A stretch of 61,178 bases of DNA, the filler included, from Sphacelaria rigidula (Eukaryota), in assembly GCA_964200075.2 (NCBI GenBank). It is 2 parts of 2 records of this genome, joined end to end, with 100 filler letters (N's around TTAATTAATTAA, not from the genome) between each part and the next. Parts side by side here need not be neighbours in the genome. Positions count along the whole stretch, not along the records: positions 30,713 to 61,178 come from CAXNAA020000060.1; 1 more part is not named here. One strand, written 5' to 3'. Shown piece by piece: positions 18,236 to 52,200 of this stretch. The number at the start of each line of letters is the position of its first letter. Positions within the stretch are counted from its first letter, which is position 1. A model generated the notes under the pieces. That model searched no databases, was not told the DNA's origin, and saw only the letters and a program-made list of their open reading frames with translations. The translations under genes and the position numbers were made by a program.

Positions 18236-18395
18236 CGCCTTCTTAAATAATGATTGTAGCCATCCCACACGAATCTCCACACCCCGTCATCTCGACCTCG
18301 CGACCTGCAGTGCTGTTCCTTCTCAAAGTTCGCACGTCGCGTCACTCCCCGCTTCTCCACCCCTCAGGCTGCAGCGCGCCAAAACTGCGTCGGCT

Positions 18396-23300: not shown

Positions 23301-23482
23301 CTCCCACGCCAATGCGTTCAGAGTCCAGATATGGTCTCATCAACTGCTGCTACTCGTATGCCAAAGTGTGTCCGCCACGAGTGCAATACCCAACACGAAA
23401 CCCCGCCCCCCGCCCGGCCCCCCTCCTTCTTCTCAACTCTCCTCATTCCCCTCCCTGCAGCGACGGCAGCGCCGCGCTGCCG

Positions 23483-25948
23483 ATGGCGTCTTGTTACGCC
23501 ACTCTCACTGCGAGAAGGTCCGTGCGTGCCATCGTGCAGTTGTCGGGCTTCCCAAGGTTGACAGGCCCCGCTGCCCAAGGGCAGACCGTCAGGATCTCGT
23601 ATGCCCGGCGTTGCGGGGCGCGCGAGGGCAACATACTTGTTGGCGACGTGGCAGACGTGACGGAGCACGACAGCCAGACATCTACGCCGACACATTCGAA
23701 ACAGAGTGAGGGCAGGGGATCGGAACGACCGCCAGGTGTGCGTGAAGATAGGAGGGGGGACAGAACAGGTGGGGTGGCAACTTCGACGGAGTCGGAGGCG
23801 GGACGGTTCGAGAGAGCGGCTAATGCAGGGTCAGGAGATTTTGAAGCGATATCCAAAGGGGGCATTCATGAGTCGGACGGCTTCCCCGAAGATGTAGGGC
23901 CGCCGCGCGATGTGGATGTCATGGGCCTACGGGTAGGGGAGGCAGGGGTCGGTAGTATTGTGAAGCCGGCAGATGATTTGTATGTGTCCGATGAACTGCG
24001 TGTGCATCAATCTGCGATTATGCAGAGCCTAATTCGTGCGCGTGGGGAGAAGAATTGGATGGGTGCGGAGCAGATCTTGAAGCACGCTCTCGTGCACCCT
24101 GAGTGGAGGTTGCTCGTGCATGACAAGATGTACGGCGCAACGATAGCGGTGTTCGCGAACTGTGGAAAATGGCAATCAGCGCTCGAAGTGTTGGATACCA
24201 TGGCATCGAACGGATCGTACCCAAACGTCATCATCTATAACTCGGTCATCCAAGCGTGTTGCAACGGTGGCCAGTGGAATCGTGCCGTGGAAGTTCTGAA
24301 GAGGATGCAAACCGAGGGCACTGCGCGCGACGCCGCTAGTTACCACTTGCTCTTGAAAAAATGTTCCGAACAAGGCCATTGGGAGCAGGTTTTGGATATC
24401 TTGCAGCAAATGCGGACGGAGGGTTTGGTGCCGCACGTATCAACTTGTCACAGTGCCATTCACGCGTGCGGTCGCGCTCACCAATGGAAGCAAGCTTTGG
24501 GTGTTTTGGGGCAGATGCAGGACATGGGCACCGCTCCCAATATCATTACCTACAACAAAGCGTTGAAAGCATGCGGGAACCGTGGCCAATGGAAAAGCGT
24601 GCTGCGTCTATTGGAGACTATGAAGAAGGGCCCTACCCCCCCCGATGTGGTGAGCTACAATACGGCAATCAAGGCTTGCGGTGGCGCGCGCGTGTGGAAG
24701 CATGTTTTGAGTCTCATGCGACATATGCGGGAGGAAGGTATCGCCCCTGATGTGGTAACCTACAACACGGCAATGAAGGCGTTCGGGGACGCCGGCCAGC
24801 TCGACAGAGCGTTGGGATTTTTGCAACAGATGCAAGTCGAGGGAATAGCGCCTAACGTCATCACCTACACGACGGCTATCAACGTGTGCAGAAGAGGTGG
24901 CCGATGGGAGGAGGCGGTGGAACTATTGGTGAACATGCAGGCGGCAGGAGTTGTCCCAAATCTAGCTACGTACAACTCGACAATGGGCGCCTGCGGAAAC
25001 GGCGGCAACTGGGAAAAGGCCTTGGACATCTTGAAGCAGATGGAGGCCCACGGGGTAGAGCCAGATCGCGTGAGCTACACTAGCGCCATCAGGGCGTGCG
25101 GCACGTGTGGCCAATGGGAGCTTGCGTTGGATCTATTGCGGAAGATGAGATCTGCAGGGGTTCCGCCACACCTCTCGACCTACAACGTGGCCGTGGCGGC
25201 CTGTGGGCGGGGCGGTGAGTCGAGTCGTGCTTTTGAGCTTCTACCGCAGATGCGAGAAGACGGCATCGCGCCCGACCTTGCGTTGTACACCACACTTATG
25301 AGCGCATGCTTGGAGAACGGCCAATGGGAAGCGACGTTGGACATTTGGCGGCAACTGCTCGCCGAGGGTATCAAACCTGACGCTGTGGTGTACAACAGGG
25401 CCATGGAAGCGTGTCAAGGTCGAGGGCGATGGGAGCAAGCTCTGGATTTGCTTCGGCAAATGACAGCACAGGGTATCAAGCCCAATCCGAAGACCTACGA
25501 GGCGGCTATAAAAGCCTGCGGACAAGGCGATCAGTGGGAGCACGCGAAAGATCTGTTGTGGCAGATGAAAGAAGATGGTTTCGTGCCTGGAGTTACCGAG
25601 TTCAACACGACGATGGCACTGTGTACACAGCGTGGTCATTGGGAAGAGGCCTTGGAATGTTTTGATCTTCTGCTAGAGACACGGACGACGGGCAACAAGC
25701 CTAATCCATCGAGTTTTAAGCTAGCCTTGGATGCCTGTGCGGTCGGGTGTCAGTGGGAAAGAGCCGTCCATCTTTTGGGGGAAGTCCCACCTGATGTGGA
25801 TAGCTACAATAGTGCCATCGTTGCATGCAGGAACGCTGGTCGGGGGGATAGAGCTCTTCATGTGTTGCGACAGATGGACGTCGCTCCCACAGTCACCAGT
25901 TTCAACGCCGTAATATCTGCTTTCGGGCAAGATGGGCGGGCGAGATAG
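23483..25948 (+). CDS. P-class PPR protein, about 821 aa, single exon, tandem paralogue of the upstream PPR gene
   Basis: About 17 PPR repeats plus a partial one (e.g. DVVSYNTAIKACGGARVWKHVLSLMRHMREEGIAP). The ORF track starts at 23252. I prefer the in-frame ATG at 23483 (MASCYATLTARRSVRAIVQL), which gives a presequence-like N-terminus and follows a C-rich leader like that of the first PPR gene. The start is uncertain. Confidence 0.93.
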   Translation: MASCYATLTARRSVRAIVQLSGFPRLTGPAAQGQTVRISYARRCGAREGNILVGDVADVTEHDSQTSTPTHSKQSEGRGSERPPGVREDRRGDRTGGVATSTESEAGRFERAANAGSGDFEAISKGGIHESDGFPEDVGPPRDVDVMGLRVGEAGVGSIVKPADDLYVSDELRVHQSAIMQSLIRARGEKNWMGAEQILKHALVHPEWRLLVHDKMYGATIAVFANCGKWQSALEVLDTMASNGSYPNVIIYNSVIQACCNGGQWNRAVEVLKRMQTEGTARDAASYHLLLKKCSEQGHWEQVLDILQQMRTEGLVPHVSTCHSAIHACGRAHQWKQALGVLGQMQDMGTAPNIITYNKALKACGNRGQWKSVLRLLETMKKGPTPPDVVSYNTAIKACGGARVWKHVLSLMRHMREEGIAPDVVTYNTAMKAFGDAGQLDRALGFLQQMQVEGIAPNVITYTTAINVCRRGGRWEEAVELLVNMQAAGVVPNLATYNSTMGACGNGGNWEKALDILKQMEAHGVEPDRVSYTSAIRACGTCGQWELALDLLRKMRSAGVPPHLSTYNVAVAACGRGGESSRAFELLPQMREDGIAPDLALYTTLMSACLENGQWEATLDIWRQLLAEGIKPDAVVYNRAMEACQGRGRWEQALDLLRQMTAQGIKPNPKTYEAAIKACGQGDQWEHAKDLLWQMKEDGFVPGVTEFNTTMALCTQRGHWEEALECFDLLLETRTTGNKPNPSSFKLALDACAVGCQWERAVHLLGEVPPDVDSYNSAIVACRNAGRGDRALHVLRQMDVAPTVTSFNAVISAFGQDGRAR

Positions 25949-29941: not shown

Positions 29942-30073
29942 CTGGATAAACGCGGGGGGGGGGGGGGGGGGGGGATGCGGGAAAAGTACGAAGAAAAAGC
30001 GGGGGGGGGGGGCGTCAAGATCGACAAGCTCTTCGGCCGCACNNNNNNNNNNTGTGTGTGGTTGGTGGCCGTG

Positions 30074-30612: not shown

Positions 30613-30712
30613 NNNNNNNNNNNNNNNNNNNNNNNNNNNNNNNNNNNNNNNNNNNNTTAATTAATTAANNNNNNNNNNNNNNNNNNNNNNNNNNNNNNNN
30701 NNNNNNNNNNNN
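30613..30712. other. Scaffold gap with artificial TTAATTAATTAA six-frame-stop linker
   Basis: 44 N + TTAATTAATTAA + 44 N; true gap size unknown. Additional 10-N gaps at 30043-30052 and 51164-51173. Confidence 0.95.
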
Positions 30713-31470: not shown

Positions 31471-32204
31471 AAAAATAGAACAACTACGAATTCTGAAAAC
31501 TTCTGATGCTCACCACTATTGTGGATCATGGCAAAGTCCGACCAAAAGAGGCGAAGCGACGTCGATAAACAGGTTCGCTTTTTTCACGATTAAAAAAATG
31601 GAACAGTTCTCAGTGTGTGGACTGGGAAGAAAATGCGATGCGCGGCGGTGCATCGCCGAACGATACCGTGCGGGTACCTATTCCCGCAGCTGTTCCACAG
31701 ATCAATTCGCTCTTTGATAGAACAGATCATGCGGGGGTACAGCTCTAGCATCTCCAGTAGCGCGCACGTCCCTCCCGAGTCGTTTTTCTATGAGCATGGC
31801 GCTTATGGGCGGCATACCTTAGGCCTGAAAAGTGTGGGCGGGGGTGCGAAAGCGATATTTCTCCTGTAGGTGAAATCCAGACAGACCCTTGTTTTTTCCT
31901 GGACAATCAAGGGGGTATAGACACCCACGTTGTTTATCGACTCCTCCGTGTAGCCTACCACAGCGGAGGATTTTAACGTCATTAATCATTTTCGGTTCTA
32001 TTATATCATCGTTTTTTACGGCGGACTACGAGCGCCTTGTATTGTTTCAGACGCTGAACCGAGTTGCTTTTTTTTTTATCATATCCCTTGAAAATATACG
32101 AGTGTCTCATTCGGTAATCCTGTATCAAAACGTTTATGTATGACGGTGCATGTAATCTATCCTGTGTCTGCCTGCCGTTGTGACTGGCGGAAAACCGAAC
32201 GAAG

Positions 32205-32347
32205 GAGTCGACAAGGGAGGACAAGAGGTGTCGACGGTGGTGTGTGCCGTGTCCAAGTTGGAACGGTGCTGCCGGCGTTGCATCCGTCTGGCAGTCAAAT
32301 TCTCCGAGGAACTGAAACAACAGAATATGCTCAAAGCTTGCGAGCAG
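32205..32347 (+). CDS. DNA polymerase A exon (end of vestigial exonuclease region); acceptor position uncertain
   Basis: Reads (G)VDKGGQEVSTVVCAVSKLERCCRRCIRLAVKFSEELKQQNMLKACEQ, donor cag|gtgggt, joining in phase 0 to VEMP. Comparable to Pol I 'L...L...L..VFENIEMP'. Confidence 0.7.
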
Positions 32348-32983
32348 GTGGGTACGAAGGGAACTAAAACCCATCATTATTGCTTCGTAATGGTATTCTT
32401 TTCATAGCGGAAACTATAGAGTCGTGAGCTTTTGTTTTTTTCTCTGCAACGTGAGGCTGCGAAACTGTTTTTGATTGCAAGTTTAGGGTGTCGACGTGAC
32501 TGCATGGCGAGAAATAGTAAGTCCGAAGCAGAAAGCTTGCACAAAACGTTCTGCGGAAAAATATGTGCCCCGAGCATGAATGAATATAATACGTAGCACG
32601 GCGTTTTTGCGAAGACGCGGTCACTGGGTTGCAGGCATTACATTCTGGTGTTGGTGGTCAATGGTAGACCCCCCCCCCCCCATTTTGACGCCGGGAATTC
32701 TCACCATACCAACAGCCCTTCATATGCTTCATTTAAAACCGAACGGCGAAGTAAAACCAGACGTCCAGCGAGAAGCGTCAGAAACCTGTCAACGACCTGG
32801 ACGTGCACGGTCACGACCTACGCATTTGTGGCATTCTTGGCCTGTATTCGTGGGGCGTGTGAAGCCTGGTCGTACCACACAGCGAAGGGTGCCGAATAAT
32901 AACGTAACCATTCCATTCCATAGTCCGAAGAGGGCGACAAAACTCCAAGAAGTTGTCATGAAATTCGGGGGGTTCCGAATTAC

Positions 32984-33036
<53 letters not shown>

Positions 33037-36000
33037 CTCTGCCGCCGCTACTTCATGTCCCGACTCCGGATCTTTCATTCTGTGTAAACAAACGAAAACA
33101 TGGAACATTTTTTGGCGATATACCGACTTTCCCTGCTCACTCCTGCCGTAATATGCATATACTGTATACATGTACATGTTACACTCAAGGTGGAAATGCC
33201 GGCCATCCCGGTGCTCGCTGAAATGGAGGTGTGCGGCGTCGTGTTTTTGCCCGAGAGAGTCACACGATTCTCGGAAGCGCTAGGCCTGCACCTGGACGGA
33301 CTGCGCAGCGCTGCGATCGCGGCGGCGGGAGGAAAGGAGTTCAACCTTGCCTCCCCCGACCAGGTATATCACAGCTGGCTTTTGTATTCCAGTGAAATAC
33401 AATAGTGCTGCAAGGCAGATTGTGTGCTTGAAAAGAACTGAAGATATACCGGATGCAATGCATCGTACTTGTAGATTTAGTTGGTGCATCAGATTATTTC
33501 CGGCAGACGACTGCGTTCAAGTATTGATGGTAATGCCCACTGCACAATGAAACGGTCACGCTATTCGGGTGCAGTGAATAGCCCTCGCCCCACGAGACGT
33601 GGTGCAAGAAAAATGCATATGGCAACCACCAGTTGACTTTGATAAAAACCTACGTGTGATGCGTGACTAGCAGCACAGGTGCTTCACGGACAATTTCACC
33701 GCTTCCAACGTTTCCGAGATTTGGTTGTCCGGGAAGTTGCTTTTTTCGTCTGACCGCGAGACCGCTGAGAAAACATAGGGAACAAAATATGACTTTCTTT
33801 TCCGTACACCCGGGAAGGACATCTGTGTTCCCCTCTTTTCTTCTATTCGTGGACCATGATCAAGATGTAAATCTTGCTGCAAAACGAGAAAACCTTACTT
33901 GTTATCCCCGGGCGTACTGTCGTTACGCTGCTTGCGTCTGAACCCTGCAAACGAGATCTCTCCTCCGGCGGTGGGTTTTGTGGTTTTCCAATACCCTCCG
34001 GGCTGACGTCTTGAGGCCGCCGATGACTGTGCGCACTACCAATATTTGGCTGTCCTTTCTAGCTGAAAAATATAGAGAGCAGAAAATATGGCGTATGCGG
34101 TTTAATACTTCACTGGGTGTCTGATTGGCCGCCTGTACGCATCCGAATCGCACCCATTCGATTTAATACCAGGTAGCGGATCTGCTGTTCAAGACCCTCC
34201 AGCTACCGGCACCCCCTGTCAAGGTTAGTAGGCACCCGAGGCAGCTAACCGTCCTCTCCGTTGTTCCTGTTTGTCTGTTTCCAAGAACGAATGCTATTTC
34301 GGACATTGACGAATTCGGCATTCAAGAAGTTCCCTCCTTTATTTCTCTTCACCTCCCGCAATAATTGTCATCGCAAGTGATGTAAGTATATCAGTATGTG
34401 CTGCGTTGTAGATCGTAGGGGAATAGAGAATATGAGGTATGCCCTGCAGATTCAGGAATAGAAAAGTTTAGCGCACTTTTCGGTTCGAGGCACCGCGCTG
34501 CACGCGGTCTGGGCACCTCCAAAAACACTTTCCAGCGCCCCCACCACATGCCCAACGTGGTTGGAGAGCACGCCCAACTTTTTTTATCCATCGCCGCAGG
34601 CTTTTCTAGGGCGCGGAGAAAGAGATCTTGTTAGAGCACCCTACTTGTCAACGAATCGGCCGGGTTTACCTGACTTTCAGCTACAAAGTTATGTCGTACC
34701 CGATTTTGTTTTCACGCGTACCCTTTTATCTTGTTTGACGCACACCCTGCATTCCCGTTTTTGTTCAATGGTGACCCTGCTGCAAGCGCCGCAGTGAATA
34801 CCCAAATATGACCGTTTTTGTATACATACACTTTTGCCGAAACCACCGGAAGCCCGACGACCAAGAAATCTTGGCCTGCTTCTGGTTACACCGCAGTCCT
34901 GAAAGATCCGACGATGTGCAGAGGTCATGACCGCTTTTTCTGCGGGACATCACAACGATCCAAAGAAGTGTGGAAAGCCTTGCCGTCACCAGCACGCACG
35001 CACATCATGTGGAGGATCGCAGCGTAGCGGTATCTGACAGCTGTGGATCCGGGCGAATCGTTACCAGATGCAGCTGCCAGGAGTTGGAAAAATATCGTCA
35101 AAGAGAAAACAGGATACGGTCGCCCGCCTGCTGTACGCCTGGATTTGTTTGTCCGCGTTCTGTCGACCCTCTCTTTGCAGTATAGTTTGTCCCAGTCCGG
35201 AGCCATGCTATCCACGGTTGATATTACTTGATTTGAATGTGGACACCGCGAATCGGACCTTCATTGGGGCTGACGGTCCCGAGTGCTTCATAGCGTGCGC
35301 AGAACGCGGTTATGCCCAAACAGGTGCCGCCGGCGACGATTTGAGGTCTTCCAACGCGCACTTTGCATAGGGCATTCTTAGGATTCTTCTCGCCCGAGGG
35401 GTCTTGGTATTCGACAAGTTGAACGGCATGAGTGAAGCGTGAAGTGGGTTGCACGACACATGTCCCACGATATAATCAGGTTCACACTGGTTACACGAGG
35501 CAACACAGCGCGCGATCACAACCCGATTTCATTCTGTACGCACGTCTTTGAACCCATCCATTACGTACCATGACTTGGAGATGCTCAAAAGTGCGGATAA
35601 CGTGTACCAGCGACCATCCGTGCACCTCCTTTTGTTGTTGGGGGTTGACCGGGTTGATGATTCCCGCAAGGATGAAGTGGCAGCGGCGCTGCCGCGCTGG
35701 TGCATAACATCGCTCGTGTGGAGCACCGACATGGTCTCAATGCGGTGTGACGCTTGGTGCGTTGCTACCTTCAACGTACGAAATGTTGATGAACACTTGC
35801 CCAGCAGTACATCCGATGATGCGTAATTCGATTCGTTTTTTCCTTCAACCCGATCGCTGATAGCTGCATATGGTAACGATTCGTCCTGGTCCACACGTGT
35901 TAGATGCCGCTACGCTGTGATCCTCCCCATGATGACGTGCGTGCGTGCGGGTGAAGGCAGGGCTTTCCACACTTCTTTCGATCTTTGTGATCTCCCGCAG

Positions 36001-39000
36001 ATGAGCGTTCGCGCCCTGCACACGTCACCGGATTTCTCAGGACTGTGGTGCAACCAGCAGCAGGCCACGATTTCTTGATCGTCGAGTTTTTCGGTCGTGT
36101 CGGCAAGGTGTACATGAACAAAAACGGGTATATTTGGGTGTCCACTGCAGAGCGCTTGCAGCAGGGTCACCGTTGAACAAAACGGGCATGTAGGTGTGCG
36201 TCAAAGAACATAAAAGAGTACGTGTGAGAACAAAGTCGGGTACGATATGACTTTGTTCGTGAGCGTTGGGTATTCCCGGCTGGTTTGTTGACGAAGTAGG
36301 GTACTCTAACAAGATCTCTTTCTCTGTGCTCTAGCTAAGCCTGCGGCGATGTATAAAAGATGTTGGACGTGCTCTCCAACCACGTTGGGTGTGTGGTTGG
36401 GGCGCTGGAAAGTGTTTTGGCGGTGCCCAGGCCGCGTGCAGCGCGGCCCTTTGAACCGAAAAGTGCGCTACACGTTTTTGTTCCTGAAGGAACATGGTAT
36501 AACCCCATTTTGTTTTTCAAACCACGGAGTATACATCCATTGTATATATTCCTCTAGATGGTAGCTTGTAGTCGAGAATATCTTTTAACATGCTGTCGCA
36601 TCAACCGCCGAATTTGTTTTCACGAGGCACTCTGCTGACGCCGTTTATTCCCGTTCAGTTAGCAGGGATCACGGATCTTCTCCAAACCTCAAGAATATCA
36701 TCCGTCCGACTTACGAAGGGTTTTGCTCAAACGTACGATTTATCGTTGAGTTATATGCGTTCGAGCACTAGCCTTCTTTCGTGACGTATACAGAGATCGC
36801 AGTGGTAGATGACAACGTTGTAGGCCCTTATAGTTTGTCAAAACATGTTGTCGAGATGACTGTATCTCGGTAACTTTCGCGTTGGCGCAGTCCAGATCTC
36901 CATGATCCGCGCGTTCAAGTCATGCAGAAGAAATTGGAATCAAAAGCCAGACCATTGGCTGCTTTGCCCTGTGTAAAGGTGAAACCATGTGCGTCCCACT
37001 GCATACTTGCCGTTCGCTAGAGAGGTTCGTGCATACAGCAGATCATTAGTGAATCCCTCCGGGGCCAGCGAACTGCACGTAGTGGTATAGGATCCCCGAA
37101 GGCTTCAGACCGATGTAAACTTGCGTAGGTCAGCAGGTAGAACATCCGGTCCCATCGCTTTGCCGTTCCCCATAGCTCTCAGTGCCTCTCTTGCTCTATC
37201 CGGGATCGGCGGGTCTCCAAGTGACTACACTTTCGGTCGTTACGCGATGCTCTCGATGACGGTTTGATCGATGATTACCGATATGATATTCCGCACAGTA
37301 CGAATGTACCGTTTCCGTCGCTCACAGATTGGGCCCTTGTGCCACAGAAAATTTCCGTCCTCGCCCGTCATGTACTGCTCGCTCTCTAGGTTTCCTCCCG
37401 CCAATCTCCGTCCTCCTCTCAGATGCTCCTACCGCTCTGTCATGTCTCCAATTCTTAAACACTCTCCCAGTTCCTCCGCATACGCGTGTCGGTACCTCAA
37501 CCAAACTTGAATAATCTCTTTGAGCCTCCTGCACGTTGCTCGCAAGGTGCGCCATGCGATGCTACTGCTACCTCTTGGCCCTACTCGTGTCGCCAGTCTC
37601 GCCCTCCTTCAATCAATCCAAGCCCGTTCGAACTCGGCTCGGATCGCGCCGTCCTTAAACGATCTTTGTAAATGGGGCTATCGGGTCGACCATAACATCA
37701 CCGTCTCGGCCGATTTCAGAAGTGTGTCGACAAGAATTGTAGCTAACCACGATGCTGCGATCTGAGTCCGGCCGGTTGGGCGGCTGGGGGGTTGCGGTGA
37801 CATTTCGACCAACCCGGCGGTGGTTTACTCGTGATGATGATGTAAGGTTATGGCCTTCTCTTCCATGGGAAGACTCGCGATGCCGGTGAATGTACCCGGC
37901 GTGCCTCGGTTGGGCGTAAAAAATGTTCTAACCGGGGCAAAGCTGTTGTTACCTTCAAGCTGTGGTAGTGCAATGTCGGTGCTGTCGCTTGCTCGGAGTC
38001 CCTGCTGTGTTACTCTATTATTTCACTATCTTCCTGTCCTGCTCGTACCCCGTTACAAGCTTTGGTATCTATCAAAACAAACAGGTGGTCATCGCCGGGA
38101 ACTTGGCTCACAGTGCTGTCCGGCTCAGTCCAGAACATGTCCTTTCGCTGGATTTTCGCTCGTCTGTGGGAGCAAAGGCAACTTCCGAACGTGGTAGTGT
38201 TCGACTTGCCTGCTACGTTGAAGGCCATGGCCATGAGGCGCTCGCTGACGAACGCCCGTGTCCATGTAGCTTTACTGATCATCGGCTCCTTCATCACCAA
38301 CTTGATCCATGCTGCTCAGCCCTTCGCTTGCATCCTTCCACTCCGCAGCAGAAGTCTCGGTATCCTGCGGCAGAGGGCTCCGTTCTGGCAGGTCTTTGTG
38401 TGTTTTGCAGCCCGATGACATCTCAACATGTCGCTCTGTATATTTGCAGCCCGATGAAATCTCAACATATCGCTGTGTATATTCGCTGAAACACCACAGG
38501 ATGACCAGCCCCGTTCTGTTCGACGAAGGACACTGCACAAACGCACCGTGAGCTCCGTTGTACAGAACCTAGCTCTAGCTCTATCTGCATCGTCGAGCCT
38601 TCCTTTTTGTTCTGTTCTCTCGAGGTTTCACCGTACTCTTTCGTGCGTGCAATTTTCTGTCCTGATTCTTTCGGTGGTCTATCCATCTAGGTATGTGTCC
38701 TTCATTTCGGTCTCACGGGGAAGGTGCAGCCGTCCCAGCTTCCGTCGGCGGCTAACTTCATTCCGCCGAGAATGGCGCTTACTGACTCGTGTCTCATCTC
38801 GATCAAAGCGTTTTCCGTTACCAAGTTCTGACTTCTGGGTAAAGCTCCGCAATCCGCAGATGAGGTCAAGTCCCAGCACGGGGTGGAACTCTGAACCTGT
38901 AGAAGTCAGCCTCGAGCGCCAAACGTTCGACGTAGCCCCTCTATAGGATTGCAGCATTTTGTTCATTGAAATGTGGTGTTTTCATTGACCAGCTCCGCGT

Positions 39001-42000
39001 TGAGAAAGATGTGCTGTTCAAACCTATTTTTGCTACGTAGATTTTCGACTCAAAAGACATTTTGGAACCTATTCCCTGGCGGTGGTCGCTGCTGTCTCTG
39101 TCCGACGAGGCTCATTCATGGACAGTAGCGGTTCAAGTTAAGGTCAGTCAGGTTAAGTGCCCCCTTTCGAACAGATTTTTTTTGTCTGCCAGTCACGCGG
39201 ATTTCGATTTTTTGCGGCTGATGGGTGAGCCTGCAGGTGGACTACCGTCCCGCTAGCTCCCCGCCACCCACACTTAGGTTGATACCTCGGGATGGCATGG
39301 CGATGCACGTGCGTCTATGTCTGCAGAGATACTGGCTTATTTCCAAAGCATTGACCTGAGCGAATTCCAGCGACACTGACTGTTCAGCGTACCCCCGGGA
39401 AATTGACACATAACTACTGTAAGTAGGACGATGTGCTCGCTCGGTCAACGTGTTTTCGTTGTGTTGTGGTGTCTTACTTCGGTTTACAGGCGGGCAGCGT
39501 GCGTGCCTCTACGTCGGCAGAAGTGCTAGAAGGGCTGCTGGGAAAGCACCCTGTGGTCGCTCCGATCTTGGAGTTTCGCGGCGTGAACAAGCTCAAGACG
39601 ACGTGTGTATACATGTATTTGAGTTGAATGATTTGATCAATTAACTGTTTTCCTTGCATCAACATATCCGCCATATATCCAGCCGCGGTCGCACGATGAA
39701 TACAGTCAAGGGAAAAAGCACCAGGAAGACTGTCTAAGACCTGAGGAAAGGGGGAAAATGAGAAAGTAAGAATAGCAGAGATCCCCAGAAACCAACCGCA
39801 ACAGACCTCCTACCAGGGGAAATAAACGATTTTTGCATTCATTTTGTGTGCTTTATATAGTATTGCAGTCGTGCAGGCTAACTACTGAGCATCGTTACTG
39901 TTAAGTCGACCGTCAAAATTGCCCGTGTGTGGTCGTGCCGTTTGCCCGTGAGAAAGTGCGTTGTGCGCAGGGCACTCGAACATGTACATCTGTGTGTGTA
40001 CCTCCACTTGCACAAGATTTTCATACTGTGCCAGATACAAATGATGTAGAGTACTACCTACGCTCCCGTGAGCCCCCATGTGCCCATTGTATACGGGCTT
40101 TCACGGGGTCAGTATGCCCTGCAGTGCTCCGGCGAGTGCGCCACACGAACCCCGAATCGCAGTGCCGATCGCGATCCAGTTTTTTTTTTTTTCCGTTGAC
40201 AGAAGGAAGGAACCCTCACCCAACACTCACCCCGCAAACGCTTTCATGGGCCGATTACCCGAAGGCTCGGCTAGATGCCTCTCGGCAGTCATGCGGGGTG
40301 AGCGCCTCGTGCGTTCGGACAACGTTGCTAAAAATCAGTTTGGAAGTTGGACCCACTAAACCCCCTGTCAACTTGACGCTGTGCACGCATCGCCCTCCTC
40401 TTATGAACTTCGGCCCTAGACCGCGCCCCAGTTGTGCCTTAGTCAAGGCTGAAAATACAGCGAGAAAATATGAATAATTCGGTTGTGCGCTCCATCTCCT
40501 CTCGGAGCCCACCGATCGCGGTCCAAGTACTGTAGATGAGGTTTCGCTTGGGTCGTATCACGTAGCTCAGACTGTATGGAGCTATCCACGATTTCTCCTG
40601 AGCCCTGCCTAAGCCCTACATAATGATCACCCGAAAGAACAAATTACCGGTGTAATCCCTAATCTACAATCGCACAAGGTGCGCGGGTAGGCATGTGTGA
40701 AGAAGAATTGAGGTCTTGAGGCTGCGGAAGTGCTGACCCGATTGTCGATCAAGACTCGGTGGGGCAGTCTCCAGGAAGAGCTGGTTTCATTATCCCTCGT
40801 GGTGCAGACTCACTCATTTTGAGAAATGGGTTGGAGGGATGGGGGTATTGAACGTTAGACCGAAGGAGACGAAACGTGCACGTTGACAAGCCTACCGGAA
40901 ATATCGGTGAGTGTGACGCATGGCTGCACACACCGCATTGATTGTTGACGTGTCCCTGTACCCGTGTTCCCAAAACCTTATTCAAACCCGAAAATCCCAC
41001 CCTGATGTCTCAGCGAAGTACTTGAGAACCCCTGTGGAATTATCGCCTCGATACAGCCAAACCCCATGAGAAACCCGTACCCCTTATAAATTGCCGTATA
41101 CACTTTGCTTCAAAGGTACGTCGATAAGCTTGCAGAAAAAGCAGTGGGTGCGGCCCCCGCAAGCAGCGCCGTGCCCGCCAGCCAAGGGGTAGGTGCCGCG
41201 CGGATACACGCAGCATGGAACCAGACCTCCGTGAGGACTGGGCGTCTCAGCTGCTCACGGCCAAACCTGCAGCAGGTGTGTGATGAGGGACCGAATGTAT
41301 TTATATTGCTTTGTTGTGGTGTGCAGTACGCATATTCATTTCATTGAGATCGATTGTGCTTGGGCACCTGTGTTGTTCCAGACCAAATATGCAGCAGGTG
41401 GATGCGTGATGTGGGGATCGTATTCTTGCTTTTACTGTTGTCGTCGTTGCCGTTGTTGTCCTCTTTGTGTTGACTTCATGTTTCCGTGTGGTCAGGCGTT
41501 CGCCCCAAACTCCTCCCTTCTTGAAGACTGTGACCCCCCGCCCCCCCCCTCCTTGCCCACGTAACGTAGACGAGGAAGAACACCTGAAGATGTACGGGGG
41601 TTTGAGAAACGGGATAGGGATGAAATCATATCTGCACGGCCTAATGGACTTCTTGAAAAATGGAAACTGCGATTTCGGGTAGGGGACCTTGATCTGCTAG
41701 GAGGAAGAAAGAGATATACCGGTAGTCGAGAGGAGGAGGAAGTAGATGTACAGAATAACCCCTGTGGCGAAGCAATAGAGAGCAGAACTTATATAGTGGC
41801 AGAATGTGAAGTACACAAGGAGGAACGGGACGTGCTAGAGGGGGAAATGCGGGACGTGAACAAAGGTGATATGAAATCGTTTGATGCATTCGACGGTAGG
41901 GAGACATCGATGGCTATACGGGGATAGATGTTGGCCACAGAGGCAAAGCAGGAAGGGGATAAGATATGTAAAAGATTTTTGTGTAATGTAGGAACGATGC

Positions 42001-43182
42001 TCCGTCTTGAGAGGGATGCGTGGTCAATGGTCAAACGACTAAGGCAAGCAGCGAATGAGTACGTGCCCTCCCACCCCCCTCCCCCCCCTCCCCCCCTGCG
42101 TCCAGATCCCAAAGGGTAGCGATCCCCTTGCTGGTGTGGCCGGCGTGAATATCCGCGATGCGTTTGCGGCTTCGAGAAACTTCACGCTCATGGCGGCAGA
42201 CTACAGCCAGATAGAGGTACATCCATATTTTGGTGACTGTCGCTGCTATCGTCACTTCTGGTGAAACTCGCACAGCTACACGCTTGTAGATTTCTGTTCC
42301 AGTGTTGACTCTCAAGCCTTTGGGAAGGATCATGCGCAGCACACATGTATTTTTCGTTTTCATTCAACCTTGTGTTTGTTGTTGATGATTTTCCGGTCAG
42401 TTTCATGACAGAAGTAGACTCCGCAGGAAGCATCGCTGGACGTTCTTGTTTTACCGGCGGTGCTTTCGCCGTTGTTTTCACCCAGATGCGGGTGCTGGCG
42501 GATGCCTGTCAAGACCCCGGCTTGTCCAAGTTGTTCGCCTCATTGGGCAGCGACGGAGCCAGCAGCGGAGGAGGTGATGTTTACCGTGGCCTGGCCGCCG
42601 AGGTAATAACATCTAGCAAACTCTGTCATACATATCAACAGATTCGCAGATGTGTTTGTCGTTAGTGTCCTGTGTGTGCCCTTTTATCAGGTGGGTGCAC
42701 AACCCCTTCATAATTCAAAGCTGTATCTCCGTCGTCGACTTATCCTGGTACAGTGCTTGAGGTATCGTGATGGCATCTCGTATGATCAACTACCTATCAC
42801 GGTGTATGCAAAGACGCAGTTTAGTGCCTCGCCTCCGTAAGATTCATAGGTGAGAGCTCATATCCAAAGTAGTGCGGCCGAAATAGATGAGCCGAAATCT
42901 GTTCCCGCGGTTCGTCGTTTCTGTTTTCGATTGGGTATGAATGCGTGTGCTGTCGCGCAAGAATTTTCCCGCCTGAAGTCATGTTGCAGAGGCCGGCCAT
43001 TTCTACTTTTTTTTTTCTCGTCTTTTTTTTTCCTCTCTGTCTACGTTTCCTGTCTGTTCTACCTTTCTGTTTTTCTTCACTCCTTCAGTGACTGTTCCCG
43101 TTTCGATTTACCTCCGGTACGGTCGTCATGAGACCACGGCTGGATCCCTTGGAGATCAGTTAATGTGCGACAATAATGCAGA

Positions 43183-43213
<31 letters not shown>

Positions 43214-46200
43214 CATTCCCGGAAGCCATGCGCCAGGGAGCTGCCGCTTTTTTCATTTCTTCTCATTTTCACCTCACTGTGTTGTCCCTTTTTCCCTCCT
43301 CTTCCCTCTCTTTTTCGAGGAACCGAGTGTTCCGTTTGTTTGTCTTGTGTGTCAATTTTTTGACATGATTGGATTCGCAGTTGATTCGCTACACAATGAA
43401 TTGGTGGTGTCTACGATGATGATAATGATAATGATAACGATGATGATGCGATGGGTATTTTGTATCAAATCTCCTCACACGGCTCAAAAGATACCACGAT
43501 GATATCGTAAAAATCATACATCATTTTCATGTGAAAAACGTCCAGGTATTCAAGAAGGAGGCGGGCACCGTGAGCGACGCGGAGAGAACACGAGCAAAAG
43601 TCGTGTGCCTAGGCATCATATACGGTGAGAGGGCGAGATCGAGGCGATGCCCACGTGTTACATGTCCGGCACTCCCTGCACAACGCTCATCGACGTGTAC
43701 GCTAGCTTTCGTCTCCTTCCGACCGGCATGGAGGAATGGTGAATCGTATTCTGTCGAGGATTGTGATATTCACATAATCGCGTATTCATTCACGTTTGCG
43801 AAGTATGACGATGCAAAGAGTGAACCAGGTGCGGAGTGCAATCGAGCATTTTTGGTTTATAACGCAGCACCAAAATGTGACCATGCCAATATGCAGGTTT
43901 GAACCCAGTTCGTTTTCCCTTCCTCGCTCCCTCCCCGGAAACACACTATCTTTTTCCGTATGTTGCCGAATGCGGCTTTCATGCTATTTTTTGTGGCTTG
44001 TATGCCTCGCTCCATATAGCTTAGCTCTTTTCGATGTTTTGGGGCCTCCCTACTTGAGAGCTCGTGGTTGAGAATTTGTGCATCATCCGGTTCCGTTTCC
44101 CGAGAGCTGAATCACAACCTGCTGATCAGACCTTGTTTTTGCACGAGCCACTGCTTGAAATCCTGTCCGGGGCTTTTCGTCCTGTTTCTGCTTCTCAGCT
44201 AACCTTAACCTCACATCTCCGTCGAAAATATATGTTTATTTCTCGCCTCATGCCGTCTTCCTTATCCCGAAGCTTCCTCGTGTGACTGCATTTTCCCATC
44301 TTCATCTGGTCCACTTCGAGACCGCGGCTGGATCCACAGTGGATCCGTTCGTGGGAGACGATCAAATGATACAATTAATCAATTTGCGTACTGTTGTCTG
44401 TGCCTGAAAATTCTTTCACAGACGTATCATGCAGACTGACAGTATCTCCTTGCAAAAAAACATTCGGATAGGAGTGTTGAACACACGTGAAAAAACACAG
44501 AACTGGACACGAATGGATCATACGGTCAGGCGATAAACGGGATCTCAACACCCCTCACGATGCCTGAGCATGCAAACATACATTTCACGGATCACCTACT
44601 TGCCGTGCCTCACATTTGTTTACACTACTGCTCTTGTGCGGTGGGCCCTAACAGCAACACGTGCGCCAAAAACGCGACGAACGCCGTTGAACAGCATCAT
44701 TTACATTTTTCCTTTTCCCCATGTACTTGAACTTGTCCCCTTCTGGGACGATTCCGTAGTCTTAAGGTCTCCGTCGAACTCTCTCGCGGTGCACGCCTGC
44801 CATCTTGGCATCGCGGATGAGATCAGCGCTCCCACACAGCGTCGACCTATTTCAAACCTCCTCGTGCTACTGTCGTCTTCACCTTCCAACCACTGAAATC
44901 AGAAAATCCCGAGAAAACGCAGATGATGGTATCTTCCGAAACGAATCGATCCCCCTACTCCGCTCTGACCGGCTTCAAGATGTACCAGTCAGAAAACCAC
45001 GGCGCGGCTGTCGGAGGTGTACATTGTATGCGTATGCACAGCACTTCACACCGCTGGGTTTTTCACGCGCCATAATTTATCATACCTGAAGTTGGGGGGA
45101 GAAACACAACACAAGTTGCCGCAAATTTTGGTGGGAGCTGAGTGACTGCACGCAGAAATGATACTCAATACTCAACTTACGGGATAGCTTGCATAAAGAA
45201 CGCGATACATGTACAACGTAGATATCTGATTTTTTGTGGCGTAACTGCGCATGTTCTTTCATGCGTGGAGCCACCTACTGTTATCAATCGCCATGTTTTT
45301 CTTGTTCGCCTGTTCCCGACCGCGGTTTCCAAATAGGCATGGGCACTCCTCAGGTGGCGCGTAAGCTGGGGGTTACGGAATCACAGGTGTGTGGTAGTAC
45401 AATATAGGTTCTCGAGGTACACAGCACTGCAGTGGGTTGTTCGTTTTTGTGGTGTGCTCCTATATTTGTCGCAGTATACACGACCGGCTTCAACAGTGTG
45501 CGATGCTGCTAGTAGTGCCCTGCTACCCCTTCCCGTCCTCTGAGCACCCGGCCTTCCCCTCATGAATACCCGCTACCGGCGTCTTGCTTCGTTTTGTTGG
45601 GACGGGAATACTTCATGAGAAAGTGGAAGAATGCCTGCTGCTCGGCCATGCTTTGCCTCAGCTGTGTATCGTCGGGAGTTACTGTTATATTGTTTTCGTT
45701 TAACCAGTCCGTGGGGCTTCAACCCCCTATGCCCCCCATTCCATTTTCCCCTTATTTTCTTGTCTTGAAGTTTTGCTCATCTTTGTTTTTATTCTCCCCC
45801 CCCCCACCCCTCCCTTTCTTTTCTCCCTATTTTTTTTCCCCCTCTGTGCTTGATATTCGATCGATTGCACGCTACGCGATACACCTCGCAAATATGTGAT
45901 GGACTTTCTACTTCGCATACTTAGGCTCACGGGCTGGTGCGATCGTTCCTTAAAGCATTTCCGAAGATCGAGCCATTCTTGGCGGCTACGCGAAGGTACT
46001 GTTTTCGCTCGGTAGGCACAATTTGGCTTTTTTCCGGACCACTTATCGTATCGGAACAATTGTTTTCGGAAAGAGAAGAAGAAACCAGATGTTCTGTATG
46101 GTTGAATATCGCACGAATATCACTTTGTGCTTACCCGGCTTTTCGCCGTTTTCGGGAGAAATGCGGCGAAATGCCTTTCAATGATGAGATGTACTGACGT

Positions 46201-49200
46201 CTGAGAATGGGAATCAGGATGCACGTGCTAGTTAGTTCAACCTGACCACTAACAATCATTTTCCTGAGGGTTAAAGGCGGTGGTTGCTACCTGCCACTGC
46301 CAGTGCACTGCAACAAAGGAATACTAGGTCCAGCACTCTACTTCCACCTGGCCCTATTCGATATCATGACTATCAGTTGCCTACAGAAATTCGAATGGAG
46401 TAGTGAACTGAATATTACATTCTGCCCAACTTGAGACACGTGTTGAATCACGCCTTCTCCTACGGTATCTTGTTTGTCCCAATTTGAAACCCTCCCCTTC
46501 CCTGGGACGAGTCGATGGTCTAATGGTCTCGAGAGATCGACACATTTCTCCCCGGTACGCCTGGCTCCCGAAAAGAAAGGGTGACGTTTGGGCTTCGCCG
46601 AATGAACGAGGTTGATGGAATGCTCGGCTGATTTTCACCTGTTCTTGTGCACCCGGGAACGGTGCTTGTTGAGTTTGCTCCTGTGTTGCCATGGCGTAGG
46701 TACGCTCGAGACAAGGGCTACGTGTGCACTCTCACGGGAAGGCGGCGCCACCTGCCCGAGATCAACAACGCCCGCAGCGCCGTGCTCAAGGCACAGGCGG
46801 AAAGACAGGCGGTCAATTCAGTCGTGCAGGTGAACACATGTGTGCAGTCGTGTTTCCGTGTCTCATTGTCCCTTCGTGGTTGTGTCTACTGCTACAGTTA
46901 GAGTAGTCGCAGTGCTTGGTACGAGAGCGGCATCAAGTTTTATTCGCCAATCAGATCCCGGTATGTATCTAGGATAGGTCAGGATCGGATATTGCGAACC
47001 CCCACCCCACCACAACCATTTTTCGGAGCGATTAAAAGAACAAGCTACCCGCATTTTGTTTCTCCATTTGGATGTCATGATTCCCTATCCCGTTCGTTGC
47101 GGGGAGTATTCTAGACGCGGAAAACGTACTTGTGGGATGAAAAACACGTGGATTTCAGGTGACGGAGGCGGGCGGCGGGAAGGCGCACGCACCTCCTCTG
47201 TGCCACTTTCTGAGTACATGGTCAAACTCATGCAGGAAGTTACGGCCCCTGGGTGTTACCGCGTTTGAACTGTTTGCCGACCTTCAAAGTGTCAGCTGCG
47301 AACCCCAGATGCATGAAAAATGCCCGGCAATGTTCATTCGCTCGCCGTTGTTCGAAAAGACCGCGATAACAGTGTGCGGGAAGACTCTCTCACCTGTCCC
47401 GTCACCATCGAATATCATGCTTCCAGTCGACTATACACAGTATTCCGCGTCAGTCTCGATGTAAATTCTTGCGTTACGGTGTTTCTCGTCGGTGGATGCT
47501 AAACAAGAAAGGCTGAACGTACTTCGCGAGAAATACCGTGAACTATGTCTACACGGTTTGTTGATATTTTGCGTAGTGACGCACAACACGCCCTTGGTGT
47601 CGAACTCATCGCCCGCACCACTCGCCAGACTAAACGTTTTCGCGAATATCGAGAGGTCCGTCTTTCCAGCTGCCTCGTAGGCCCACGCTAGCTTACAGGA
47701 GGCGCGAAAGCCCCCCCCGCTGACCCCCTTGTGCATTCGGTCGGAGACGTGATATGGTTGTTGCCCGTGTTACACCCGCTGCCACCCCCCCTCCCCTTCT
47801 CTTGGTCTCGTTGTTCCCTCCGGCTCTTCTTCACGACTTCGTCGGGTTCCCTCTCCTTCACCTCCTCCTCTTGCTCCTTCTCCTCCTCCCCCCCTTCACT
47901 CTGTTTATCTGGGTAGGTGCCCTCACTCCCCCAGCTTTAGCTGCCTGCACTAGTTTCCTCAGTGGCATCTATCTTAGCCCCTACCACCTTTCCTGCTGTC
48001 GCCCGTTCCGTGGGTTCCTCGTCATTTTTCCCGCCGTCTTATTGTGTCCCACCTTGCGGTCGCCCCTGTGGCTCAGTTGGTAACCTCGAATCCTTCTGAT
48101 GGTTGGGTCGTCGGTTCGAATCTCGGTGCAGTCACGCGATCTAGGTCTTTCATCTCTCACAATTCTCAGCAGTGGAAAGCGACGATGTCGTGGGTTCACG
48201 GAATTAGACTTCACGGTTGACGAGGGAAAGAGACTGCTGAACCCCTCTCGCGATACAAAACAAGGTAAGCACCGCAGAAGGAAGGTGTAGTACTGAAGGA
48301 AAAAAAATGAAAAACCTCCCGTGCTGGCCCCCCTACTGTTTGACCCCGGCTGATGCGCCCACATATACCGAAAGGTGGAGACCGGCGTCCAGACTAGACA
48401 GGACGACAACCCCCACACAACACACCTTGCGCGATCCACCCCTTACTCGTCCAGACTTTAGCTTTGAAGACGTTCCGGAGGTGGCCAGTACAAGGTTCTC
48501 CTCATTTGGCGCAGTGTACTCTTTGGCAAGGGCCTTCGTCATATTGCCGATATGGAGCAGGATGGATCGATCTCGGTGTTTAGTCGCCACGTGGTTGCTC
48601 ATGCCATACCTCTAGACATACCGTGCTTGCTCGCAAAACGTACTAGCATGGACAAATTGGTTGACGACCGTGACTCCTTGGGTAGTCTTGCAGAAGAAGC
48701 GCGGGGGTATACTTCCTCGCCGCGCATGTGCACCCTTGGTGCATAGCGACAGTTGGGCAGCAGCACCCTTTGAGCCCCCTTCTCTGTGACTGGAGCCTTG
48801 ATTGAAGAACGGCATTGTCCCGACTGGAGGCAAAATCCACAGATATATCACTTTTGCAAGTGTTCGTGCTCAAGGATGTGCCGAGTAACATGACGGCACA
48901 TGCTCTTCCTGTTCACATCAACTTGACAAGTCGTGCACGCGACATATTCGGGTGCACCCCCTGTGTGCTGAAGGTTGACTTGTCCGACATATCGGAGTAG
49001 GTGAAATCTTCGTCAATAGGTAATGGACTCACCTGTCCAGTCGGGTATTGCAGCTGTATTGAAAGGGCGCTCCAGCCCTTGAGCCCATCAACGGTGGTAA
49101 AAAGAGCTCCCCTCAGACTCTCGAGGTCATCCTGTGTGAACTGAATCGTCGTGAAGGCATCGTTCATATATCGGGATTTAGCTGCACCGCAAACTTGGTG

Positions 49201-52200
49201 TAGACTTACAATTTTCACGGTGTAGACCCTCGTGTTCCGTCCGATCTCATCCCCACACTCTCTCGGCATCTGCCGATGACTGTGTCTCCTCAACCATCCC
49301 CATGAGGGTGCCGCGCACTTGTGCCCCGAAAGTAAGTGCCCCCGGAAGGACCCTCTTCGAATTAGCAAGTGTCAGGGAGAGCCAAGGGGTAGGAGCCAAA
49401 TTTATCGAGTGATGCCACCGATGCAGCGAACGGTTCTGCCACGTGAAGGGGTACCTTTTCACATGGTGCGCTGTCAGCGGCTCGCGTCGATGAGAACGCC
49501 CCGACCCGCGTGAGAGGATCCCGACAAGCTGATCAACATTTTGCGAATTCCGTTGGTCTGTACAAGGTCTTCACGAGATTCGCGCCCAAGCACAAACTAC
49601 GTCTCTCGCCCCTCCGTGTTAGAAAGTAATTGTAACGTTACCGTAAACCGTGGACAGGTGTCGACATTTAGCAAGCCGCGCTTGGTCTGACCCCACGAAA
49701 TCGAAAGTAAGTGGTTGTTCTACCGTAGCACCCACGTAAAACTCGACCTGTGCTCTACACTGAACTCGAGCAGGTTCTGCAAGCTACGCTAAACTCACGT
49801 AGTTAGTACAAGCCGCGCTGAACTCGAGCACTTAGTATACGCGATACTAAATTCAAGCGGTTTGTACGACATCTGCCCCCACTATCATCCTCCTCTCCAA
49901 CCCCATTTGTTTTCGATTCTAGAAACGGTTGGGGGTGATCCTGATATTCAAAACAACCTGACCCACCGCTGTGAGGATAGTATATACGTCTTGATGTGCG
50001 GCAGTGAAAATATACTCATCGCTTCGTGCACGGATTTTCAAGTTTGCCTACCCAGCCCCGTGCTTTTTGCAAGCGATTTGGCGCGTAAACACACCTACCG
50101 AACTTCGGTGCAATCGACTCAAACATGACATGATTCCATACCTGTTCCGTAACGGCCGCGAGTCTTATTGCCCCCGCATCAACCGGTAGGGTACGGCTGC
50201 AGACATCATCAAGTCAGCTATGGTACTATTGGCGGTACGGCTGGATCAATGGCGAAGAAGTCTCCAGCCTGGGGGGGACAGCCCGAGGATGATCATGCAG
50301 GTGACTTTTCCTTGAGTTCTAAACATGTTTTCCCAATGGTTTGTTTACGTTGTTCTTCCTCTTTTCGTGTTAAGAATATCACAAATATTTTGGTAGAATG
50401 CATTGTAGGATGAGAGCACACAAGTCTACCGGAAAGCCGACGACCGTTGGACTTTCTCTCGTTTCCCACCATGGAAGTGCACCACAGCACGAGGAACGTG
50501 TACTGGGAATCAAGCGCACTCATGAGGGCGTATTCCTTCACGATTCGGCTAGCAGAAGATTGACGATACTCAATTTCGCGCCCGACGTGAAGTAAACTCT
50601 TACTGTACGGGCGCACGGTTCTGTGGTATTTCGGTCTTCCATACGTTTCTATCTTGCGTTGTTTGTCGGTTTTCAGTGTCTTCTGCTCCATCTCCCTCTC
50701 GAACATCTCCCTTTTCTCGAGTTTACTTAGCCCAGTGTTCCCATCTTGTTCAACTTGGGTACATCCATCCTGTGACCATGGCTGTGTTAAGATCCTTGTC
50801 TCGACACAAACGCCGACAAAGACGCCCATCAAGGCACGCGGGCATTTCCGAGTACTTTCCGAAAAGATGAATCACCCACCAAGTAACTGCGGAGGATCTC
50901 GCGCCTTTTCACAATAATTCTGCATCTGAAGCTCTCAAACATCAATGGTCACAGCAGCCGGCTGAGATCTGTTGAGTTGTCCCGACTCTCCGCTTTTGCA
51001 CCTCATGGCAAGTACCTCATAGGAAGTAGGCCTGCGACCAGATTGGCGCTTGATGCCTTTCAGTGGCCACCGTTGGCAGCCACGAGCCCCCTGCAGGAGC
51101 CGCCGGAGCCCCCCCCCCCCCCCCCCCCCCCCCCCCCGCCCCGCGCCGCCCGGCCACACGCACNNNNNNNNNNGGCCGGGCACGCATTTGCGCCGTAAGG
51201 GCTTTCGGGGGCCCGCGGGGGCGAGCCGAGCCCCCCGCGGGGGCCCCGGGGGCCCCCCCCCCCCCCCCCACTGGAAACCCCCCCGGAGGGCGGAAAGTTC
51301 AGTGTGCCGTTTTGTACATATTACGATGTGGTGCTCAGTACAGAGCAGCACAGTGCACTACAGTGCGGTACAGTATTCGAAAGTTAAAGAACAGCCGAAA
51401 ACAGAGGGCATACTGCGTCTTCGTTCATGTTTGAATTCGGATATCTTTCGCGGTCAGGGCCGCTGTGAAGTGGTTGATAGTAGACATGTTTGACAATACC
51501 TTTGCAGCGACAGGCAGCAGCCGAGCAACCGCGCCCTATCAGCGGCCTCATGTCTGAAAGCATTCGGCGGCTGCTGAAACTGAGGATTGCGGCAAACCGC
51601 CGATACCCGATCTGCTTCGAGTGCTGCGCCGCAGCGCCGCATTTCTAAACATCCCTGTTGTAGCTTCATATCTTCTCCAGAAATGTGCAAGTTGAGATGT
51701 GCCGTTTTCACGGATACAGTAGTAGATATAGCCACGCTACACAGGCGCGGTAACAATAATGGCCGCTTCAACACATTGTTGGCGATTTCAGGTGATACAA
51801 CATTCGGGCTCACCCGGGGGTGTTGTATAGGACGTGATTGACGACGTATATACCGACACCACTCTTGACAAATCGAACAATTACCACTTAGCGGTGTCAT
51901 TAAAGGGGTGGTATATATTGCAAGAGTATTCAACGGTGTATCTTCGATAGTTGAGATACTCTCCACGAATTCTGTGGATGTCGTCATCAAGGTTCGACCC
52001 GTGCGAATGGCTCTTCCGTTTCATTGTTTGTATTTCGTGTTTCGTTATCGTCACAGATTCACGATGAGCTGGTATTCGAGTGCCCCGCACGGGAGGAAGA
52101 CCTGGGGAAGCTTAAGGTGCTACGCATACGACGAGTTGCGTTGTTTTGATAACAGACCACTACGTGAATCTCTCCACTCAATTCCGAGCTACATTGGCAG

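Follow-up and report, generated by a model that had tools for sequence, protein, structure and literature searches.

The window analysed here, a stretch of 61,178 nucleotides from Sphacelaria rigidula (GenBank assembly GCA_964200075.2), carries at 43546-43624 on the plus strand an exon from a family A DNA polymerase gene rich in introns, and this exon encodes motif B (the O-helix) with leucine at the B3 position. Among the residues that govern the sugar selectivity, speed and fidelity of family A polymerases, the one at B3 in the O-helix is the best studied. The Leu found there in the S. rigidula gene is genuine and transcribed, and is no error. In our view, the locus is probably a transcribed nuclear gene for a stand-alone family A polymerase, one that belongs to a Leu-fixed eukaryotic lineage distinct from the sampled Pol I enzymes and has a repair-type role. 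Judged from sequence, this lineage appears to be a family undescribed before, helicase-less and apparently proofreading-dead, yet of a known polymerase type; our literature search found no account of a eukaryotic Leu-B3 polymerase or of a brown-algal Pol theta or Pol nu.

The exon is bordered by AG on its 5′ side and by GT on its 3′ side, and the plus-strand frame across it translates to VFKKEAGTVSDAERTRAKVVCLGIIYG. The Leu codon is CTA (43609-43611) and has as neighbours gtc (43600), gtg (43603), tgc (43606) and ggc (43612); the O-helix reads K-V-V-C-L, with V at +1 and Leu at +4. In a phmmer alignment, the orthologue stretch ‘rakvvclgityg’ lies over Klenow ‘sakainfgliyg’, and Leu falls on the Klenow Phe, a column that we take to be F762 (K758 plus four, the B3 position). 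Chance is no issue here, because both the motif and the gene are conserved.

The gene to which the exon belongs was recovered from a search with a neighbouring exon, which found the NCBI S. rigidula protein P0001 (278 amino acids, 100% identical). A script mapping fits P0001 letter for letter to nine window exons with AG/GT borders, one of which is exactly 43546-43624, and with three more exons upstream, eleven exons form a single open frame of 397 amino acids. In the window exons, motif A reads DYSQIE, motif C reads HDE and motif B fits the family pattern RxxxKxxx[FYL]GxxYG, all of them intact. Against the family A polymerase profile PF00476, P0001 scores 228.6 bits and its orthologues score 342-368 bits, which places them within family A. 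A first-pass annotation of this DNA had claimed Leu, encoded by CTA, at the F762 position of an intron-rich nuclear-type gene with the catalytic residues of motifs A and C intact; the reading frame, the P0001 mapping and the phmmer alignment to Klenow confirm the residue, and the exon mapping bears out the description of the gene.

The codon and its transcription were followed in four read runs (X1, X3, X6 and X7), of which X6 and X7 come from another study and X1 may be the sample of origin. No run is recorded as RNA, and X6 and X7 are termed RNA-like solely from the splicing of their contigs. X1 gave one contig covering 43221-45793 with 0 differing letters. X6 and X7 gave contigs of 3509 and 3605 nucleotides that splice 39602>41116, 41272>42103, 42214>42484 and 42600>43544 at GT..AG, with 80 letters on the exon side of the last joint, and X7 additionally splices 46827>50188. 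Both runs have zero differing letters and leave CTA unchanged, and about 2.8 kb of each spliced contig lies ahead of position 39488. Since these contigs are spliced, they are transcripts holding the CTA exon. X3 is a diverged strain with no cover of 43.2-47.8 kb and hence none of the motif B exon. The read check of the codon, set beforehand, returned CTA in X1, X6 and X7 and no Phe or Tyr codon.

Conservation of the residue was first seen among the closest relatives. Motif B reads K[VT]VCLGI[IT]YG, with Leu in six of six brown-algal or brown-alga-like proteins (P0001, P0004, P0006, P0007, P0009 and P0010), namely those of Sphacelaria, Choristocarpus and Discosporangium, two of Ectocarpus and a EukProt protein 80% identical to Ectocarpus; P0002, P0003, P0005, P0008 and P0014 are fragments that do not include the motif B region and stand outside this count. 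A profile built from three brown-algal proteins was run against 1.84 billion representatives, and its best 150 matches comprise 52 Leu, 85 Phe, 8 Tyr and 1 Ile, together with four proteins missed by the pattern (P0146, P0147, P0150 and P0154), which read Leu in the motif listing. Across 346 aligned polymerase domains, the B3 residue is F in 270, L in 64, Y in 10 and I in 2. Named members of the Leu family are Chrysoparadoxa australica and the chrysophyte genus Paraphysomonas, and the lineage also holds many eukaryotic metagenome and transcriptome proteins. A metagenome scan with P0131, dominated by the ADYSQIEM pattern, returned mostly Pol I-like loci, and two of its contigs were informative: L001 carries a family member along with a valyl-tRNA synthetase split across several open reading frames (ORFs), while the family member on L002 has kinesin and DXP reductoisomerase (DXR) as neighbours. 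Because of this split synthetase and these neighbours, both contigs are taken as eukaryotic.

The relationships of the lineage were examined with a careful IQ-TREE run on 88 polymerase domains (56 L, 20 F, 10 Y and 2 I at B3), from which the B3 column itself was excluded; they remained after the 346 domains had been thinned, with an identity limit of 80% for those without F and of 52% for those with F. The tree separates 23 Pol I rows from the remaining 65 with support of 100/100, recovers 47 rows (45 L and 2 I) as a core clade with 93/93, and unites the brown algae with Chrysoparadoxa at 100/99. No bacterial lineage appears as sister to the Leu family among the 88 rows. The annotation had suggested a distinct algal subfamily that may have unusual nucleotide selectivity; the selectivity is pure conjecture. 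The distinctness stands, and Leu is conserved: brown-algal orthologues carry Leu, not Tyr or Phe (6/6), as do 45/47 rows of the core clade. The restriction to algae does not stand, as Paraphysomonas and many other eukaryotic proteins belong to the lineage. As one part of the explanation favoured above, and with the same degree of confidence, selection has probably fixed Leu throughout an entire eukaryotic lineage, and the residue is not peculiar to the S. rigidula copy.

A second feature of the family, which the annotation had missed along with the Cys motif described below, is what its proteins lack. Among 53 proteins scanned against Pfam, helicase or exonuclease families are absent from all but two: P0151 (Pol theta-type, with Helicase_C and POLQ_helical) and P0265 (a bacterial Pol I with nuclease domains). 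Neither family was found in any Leu- or Ile-type protein of this set, whose only clear family is PF00476; the long brown-algal proteins P0006, P0007 and P0010 gave no helicase or exonuclease match, and the exonuclease profiles PF01612/PF22619 and the 5′-nuclease gave none in the family proteins scanned. With the Pol nu pseudo-exonuclease profile PF18049, P0184 scored 26.6 bits against a cut-off of 27 and the N-terminus of P0277 scored 13.3 bits, with no match in the other family proteins scanned. In a language-model search, the N-terminal domain came closest to Pol I exonuclease-like clusters (0.95), from which it follows that the fold is kept and the exonuclease signature lost. By eye, in the 24-row alignment A4, the presumed Exo I stretch reads LW-D-x-[TS]-[ST]-[NS]-H with no conserved acidic pair (no DxE), and no Exo II aspartate is seen. 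The sequence that separates the two stretches contains a motif C-x5-C-x2-W-x-C-x-C...R, whose Cys residues are invariant across the 24 rows. This Cys motif is present in 31/39 Leu-type proteins with at least 330 amino acids before the polymerase domain and in 0/11 Tyr rows. Searched as a DNA pattern, it gave one match in IMG/VR and one in prokaryote species genomes, both due to chance, one lying opposite an RNA polymerase ORF and the other out of frame.

Two further observations concern the long N-termini and the gene models of the orthologues. In P0006, P0007 and P0010, the first ~50 residues are conserved (...LVPPG.PPSGP.LH..AKN.PFAL..SLE..RG.DYF.ME.FR) and are followed by a long low-complexity region; going by this conservation, the extreme N-terminus may be a docking peptide. 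Residues ~1210-1571 of P0007 (EukProt g6606.t1) carry fused WSC and Fringe-like domains, probably the result of a merged gene model.

On the explanation that we favour, the enzyme would combine a complete polymerase domain with a dead exonuclease-like domain and a long N-terminal region. Its lineage and the Pol theta-type (Tyr) enzymes both fall beyond the Pol I split in the tree, and its core is marked by the four-cysteine motif. By analogy with Pol nu and Pol theta, it might serve as a nuclear repair, gap-filling or lesion-bypass polymerase that works without proofreading. At the active site, the aliphatic Leu would pack against the sugar of the incoming deoxynucleotide (dNTP) instead of Tyr or Phe, and could confer Phe-like rejection of dideoxynucleotides (ddNTPs) and slower but more selective insertion, the model being the Taq F-to-L mutant, cited by Nasko 2018 as slower and more accurate.

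Several observations weigh against this explanation. Sequence scores do not favour Pol theta: for a single protein, Klenow (186 bits) exceeds Pol theta (164) and Pol nu (152), and for the family profile, Bst scores 470, Pol nu 463 and Pol theta 409 bits. VIA-align ties M. smegmatis Pol I (Z 34.3) with Pol theta (33.5), Pol nu (33.2) and Bst (32.7). In the tree, the backbone of the Leu lineages, six Tyr rows (including P0151) and one Phe row collapses, so that the tree shows no specific Pol theta or Pol nu sister; the 93/93 of the core clade falls under the tree tool's star threshold; P0151, assigned to Pol theta from the helicase domains that Pfam finds in it, is the sole anchored reference; and the tree is one without named POLN, POP, alvPolA, abanPolA or phage Leu-type sequences. 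Finally, the 5′ half of the S. rigidula gene is absent from the window, so the architecture described above is taken from orthologues.

For the fold comparison, the Paraphysomonas member was modelled in AlphaFold2 from alignment A4 (predicted local distance difference test, pLDDT, 82.5; predicted template modelling score, pTM, 0.81). Foldseek placed Pol nu 4xvl first (E 2.3e-39; TM 0.70/0.84; 27% identity), followed by Pol theta (2.4e-38) and Bst (1.3e-35). As far as a predicted model can tell, fold comparison does not separate Pol I, Pol theta and Pol nu. An Atlas search with the polymerase domain returned generic PolA clusters only. The solved Leu-B3 polymerase 7PBK was not in the best 60 of 71 PDB sequence matches, nor among the Foldseek matches listed; it is the only solved Leu-B3 polymerase that Czernecki 2023 names in the parts drawn on here.

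A possible but tentative reading goes further and makes the lineage a separate ancient eukaryotic subfamily, neither Pol theta nor Pol nu, defined by Leu together with a metal-binding (zinc or iron-sulfur) four-Cys insertion in the dead exonuclease domain. If this were true, the metal module would swap proofreading for a sensing or docking function; we know of no other family A polymerase that has a metal site of this kind.

It seems unlikely, on the other hand, that Pol theta (POLQ) is split here and the gene encodes just its polymerase part, with the helicase half encoded elsewhere and Leu being a lineage-specific substitution of Tyr. The Leu family and the Pol theta-type rows do share one side of the 100/100 Pol I split, and motif B is akin to the AKQICYGIIYG of P0151; moreover, POLQ is annotated as split in some lineages, according to the section of Takata 2017 (PMC5472330) used here, and polymerase-only proteins grouping with PolQ are mentioned for Thalassiosira and Dictyostelium in Leal 2020. 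Against this, the core clade has its own Cys motif, found in none of the 11 Tyr rows, and the polymerase domain has only short insertions relative to Klenow.

That the enzyme is a Pol I-like polymerase similar to POP, active in replication or repair in an organelle (plastid or mitochondrion), is improbable, even though scores to bacterial Pol I structures equal or exceed those to Pol theta and Pol nu and many eukaryotic family A enzymes are organellar, as stated in the available portion of Harada 2024. The Leu/Ile-type proteins among the 53 scanned have no exonuclease Pfam match, whereas the POP cluster, as tabulated in Czernecki 2023, keeps the exonuclease DxE in ~89% of sequences and has Phe at B3. 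The lineage is also set apart from the sampled Pol I with 100/100 support, and the Ectocarpus N-terminus, judged by eye, begins with no hydrophobic signal-peptide-like stretch.

We regard it as very improbable that Leu was acquired horizontally from a phage or bacterial polymerase of the Leu762 type (SPO2-like, APEX, CHEAP or phiJL001-like), although Leu at B3 is otherwise recorded only in those groups, so far as the relevant passages of Czernecki 2023 and Nasko 2018 go. The gene has many spliceosomal introns; a tblastn search of 50,697 phage records reached no more than 38% identity at its best places, and the top annotated matches listed are ‘DNA-directed DNA polymerase’ entries in enterobacterial records; and the Cys-motif DNA pattern matched only once in IMG/VR and once in the prokaryote species genomes, both times by chance.

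That the locus is a decaying or mis-assembled copy whose Leu stems from relaxed selection is hardly credible, for while its 5′ half is missing from the window, N gaps lie upstream and the public gene model is truncated, its eleven exons keep one open frame, its catalytic motifs are all intact, the 3.5-3.6 kb spliced contigs hold ~2.8 kb ahead of position 39488, and Leu is kept from Discosporangium to Ectocarpus and beyond.

The exons and other features of the window are collected in Table 1. The exons at 32162..34229 correspond to the last part of the exonuclease-like domain and the first part of the thumb. Upstream of 32162, no trace of the 5′ half of the gene, which in orthologues holds the Cys motif, was found in the whole window by tblastn, by two hidden Markov models (HMMs) on both strands or by a Cys-motif regular expression; the upstream gaps at 30.0-30.7 kb probably hide these 5′ exons. 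A Cys-motif look-alike at 3730-3789 is weak, out of context and ends in a stop, and was judged a chance match. The public model of P0001 begins at an internal ATG (Met) at 42190, inside motif A, and omits at least five upstream exons backed by homology and spliced contigs.

Table 1. Features of the S. rigidula family A polymerase gene and assembly gaps in the window.
Feature	Position	Strand	Basis
Three upstream exons, borders approximate	~32162-32350, 33187-33366, 34170-34229	+	tblastn and HMM homology only
Exon GSVRASTSAEVLEGLLGKHPVVAPILEFRGVNKLKTT, 5′ border approximate	39490..39602	+	homology; contig piece 39488-39602; joint 39602>41116 (GT..AG)
Exon YVDKL...RIHAAWNQTSVRTGRLSCSRPNLQQ	41116..41275	+	homology; spliced contigs
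Motif A exon (LMAADYSQIE)	42106..42216	+	mapping; joints 41272>42103 (cut +3) and 42214>42484 (cut +2)
Exon MRVLADACQDPGL...VYRGLAAE	42486..42602	+	P0001 mapping; spliced contigs
Motif B (O-helix) exon, reads RTRAKVVCLGIIYG	43546..43624	+	frame; P0001 mapping; spliced-contig joint 42600>43544
Exon MGTPQVARKLGVTESQ	45337..45386	+	P0001 mapping
Exon AHGLVRSFLKAFPKIEPFLAATRR	45925..45995	+	P0001 mapping
Exon YARDKGYVCTLTGRRRHLPEINN...AERQAVNSVVQ	46700..46829	+	P0001 search and mapping; X7 contig joint 46827>50188
Exon GTAADIIKSAMVLLAVRLDQWRR...MIMQ	50190..50300	+	P0001 mapping; spliced contig
Motif C exon (QIHDELVFECP)	52057..52116	+	homology; P0001 mapping
Last exon, includes stop codon	55272..55463	+	P0001 mapping
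N runs (assembly gaps)	30043-30052, 30613-30656, 30669-30712, 51164-51173

Some features of the reads and of the surroundings are worth recording in their own right. X3, an ‘algae metagenome’ run, shows many single-base differences, mostly intronic, at 39000-43100 and 48100-51000, which points to a second strain or haplotype of the locus. Highly repeated sequence lies inside the introns of the polymerase gene, at 41406-42207 and 47822-48623, in all four runs; the summed contig depth there is ~1.4 million (X1) and ~0.4 million, versus ~70 elsewhere, many contig loose ends enter C-rich tracts, and the ORFs in these repeats have no Pfam match. At 45970-46727, an unspliced contig of 758 nucleotides on the minus strand was found in X6 and again in X7, running across an intron of the polymerase gene and into the exons on either side; it could stem from intron retention, from antisense transcription or from carried-over DNA. 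On the same strand upstream of the polymerase gene lie two long single-exon pentatricopeptide-repeat (PPR) genes, at 18234-20321 and 23249-25948 (+), with PPR_2 scores of 393 and 339 bits.

A Leu lineage with no proofreading and with a Cys motif would be a natural experiment on the tuning of accuracy in an exonuclease-less repair polymerase. It would also supply a putative DNA-repair enzyme of brown algae and other protists that is testable in Ectocarpus, and it calls for caution in virome studies that take residue 762 as a phage marker.

Among known systems, the same Leu is found in other hosts, in the Leu-B3 phage and bacterial groups (SPO2-like, KPP25-like, phiJL001-like, phiVC8 DpoZ, APEX and CHEAP). 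The annotation had linked natural Leu762 above all with phage PolA genes, which agrees with Table 1 of Czernecki 2023, where Leu at B3 appears only in phage and bacterial clusters and neither of the two Leu superclusters is eukaryotic. Where the family described here has apparently lost its exonuclease, the phage groups among these keep an active one, according to the same table. With bacterial Pol I (Klenow, Bst and Taq), the family shares a compact polymerase domain, equal sequence and fold scores and all six motifs. It differs in having Leu at B3, where Pol I has Phe 762 next to Asn 761; the Pol I rows, moreover, have 5′-nuclease Pfam domains, most of them also an exonuclease, and lie across the 100/100 split of the tree.

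Eukaryotic family A enzymes offer closer parallels. As outlined in Harada 2024, alvPolA and abanPolA are nuclear, and no stramenopile type is included in that outline. The unexplored proteins of Thalassiosira and Dictyostelium reported in Leal 2020 resemble the family, by description alone, in being polymerase only and uncharacterised. In the classification of Czernecki 2023, eukaryotic Pol theta and Pol nu carry Tyr at B3. The family resembles POLQ in its side of the Pol I split, in apparently being exonuclease-dead and in motif B (AKVVCLGIIYG here, AKQICYGIIYG in P0151). POLQ has a role in DNA repair, and its polymerase domain carries the long inserts 1-3. In the phmmer alignment, only insertions of ~7-14 amino acids relative to Klenow are seen in the family. 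The family further differs from POLQ in having Leu instead of Tyr at B3 and in having no N-terminal superfamily 2 helicase-like domain in the brown-algal orthologues of 1219 and 1307 amino acids, a domain that P0151 does have.

The remaining comparison is with POLN, recorded only in Metazoa and defined by an O-helix (K/R)xxY plus three inserts, as set out in the part of Takata 2017 (PMC5472330) cited above. The O-helix of the family, VxxL, departs from this definition, and its Cys motif occurs in none of the 11 Tyr rows, though no Tyr row is identified as POLN. The likeness lies in the overall plan: similar to the animal POLN (PDB 4XVI-4XVM), the family stands alone as a family A polymerase, lacks a helicase and has an apparently inactive exonuclease-like domain, its model has POLN as its best Foldseek match, its profile reaches 463 bits against POLN, and two of its members give faint matches to PF18049, below the cut-off.

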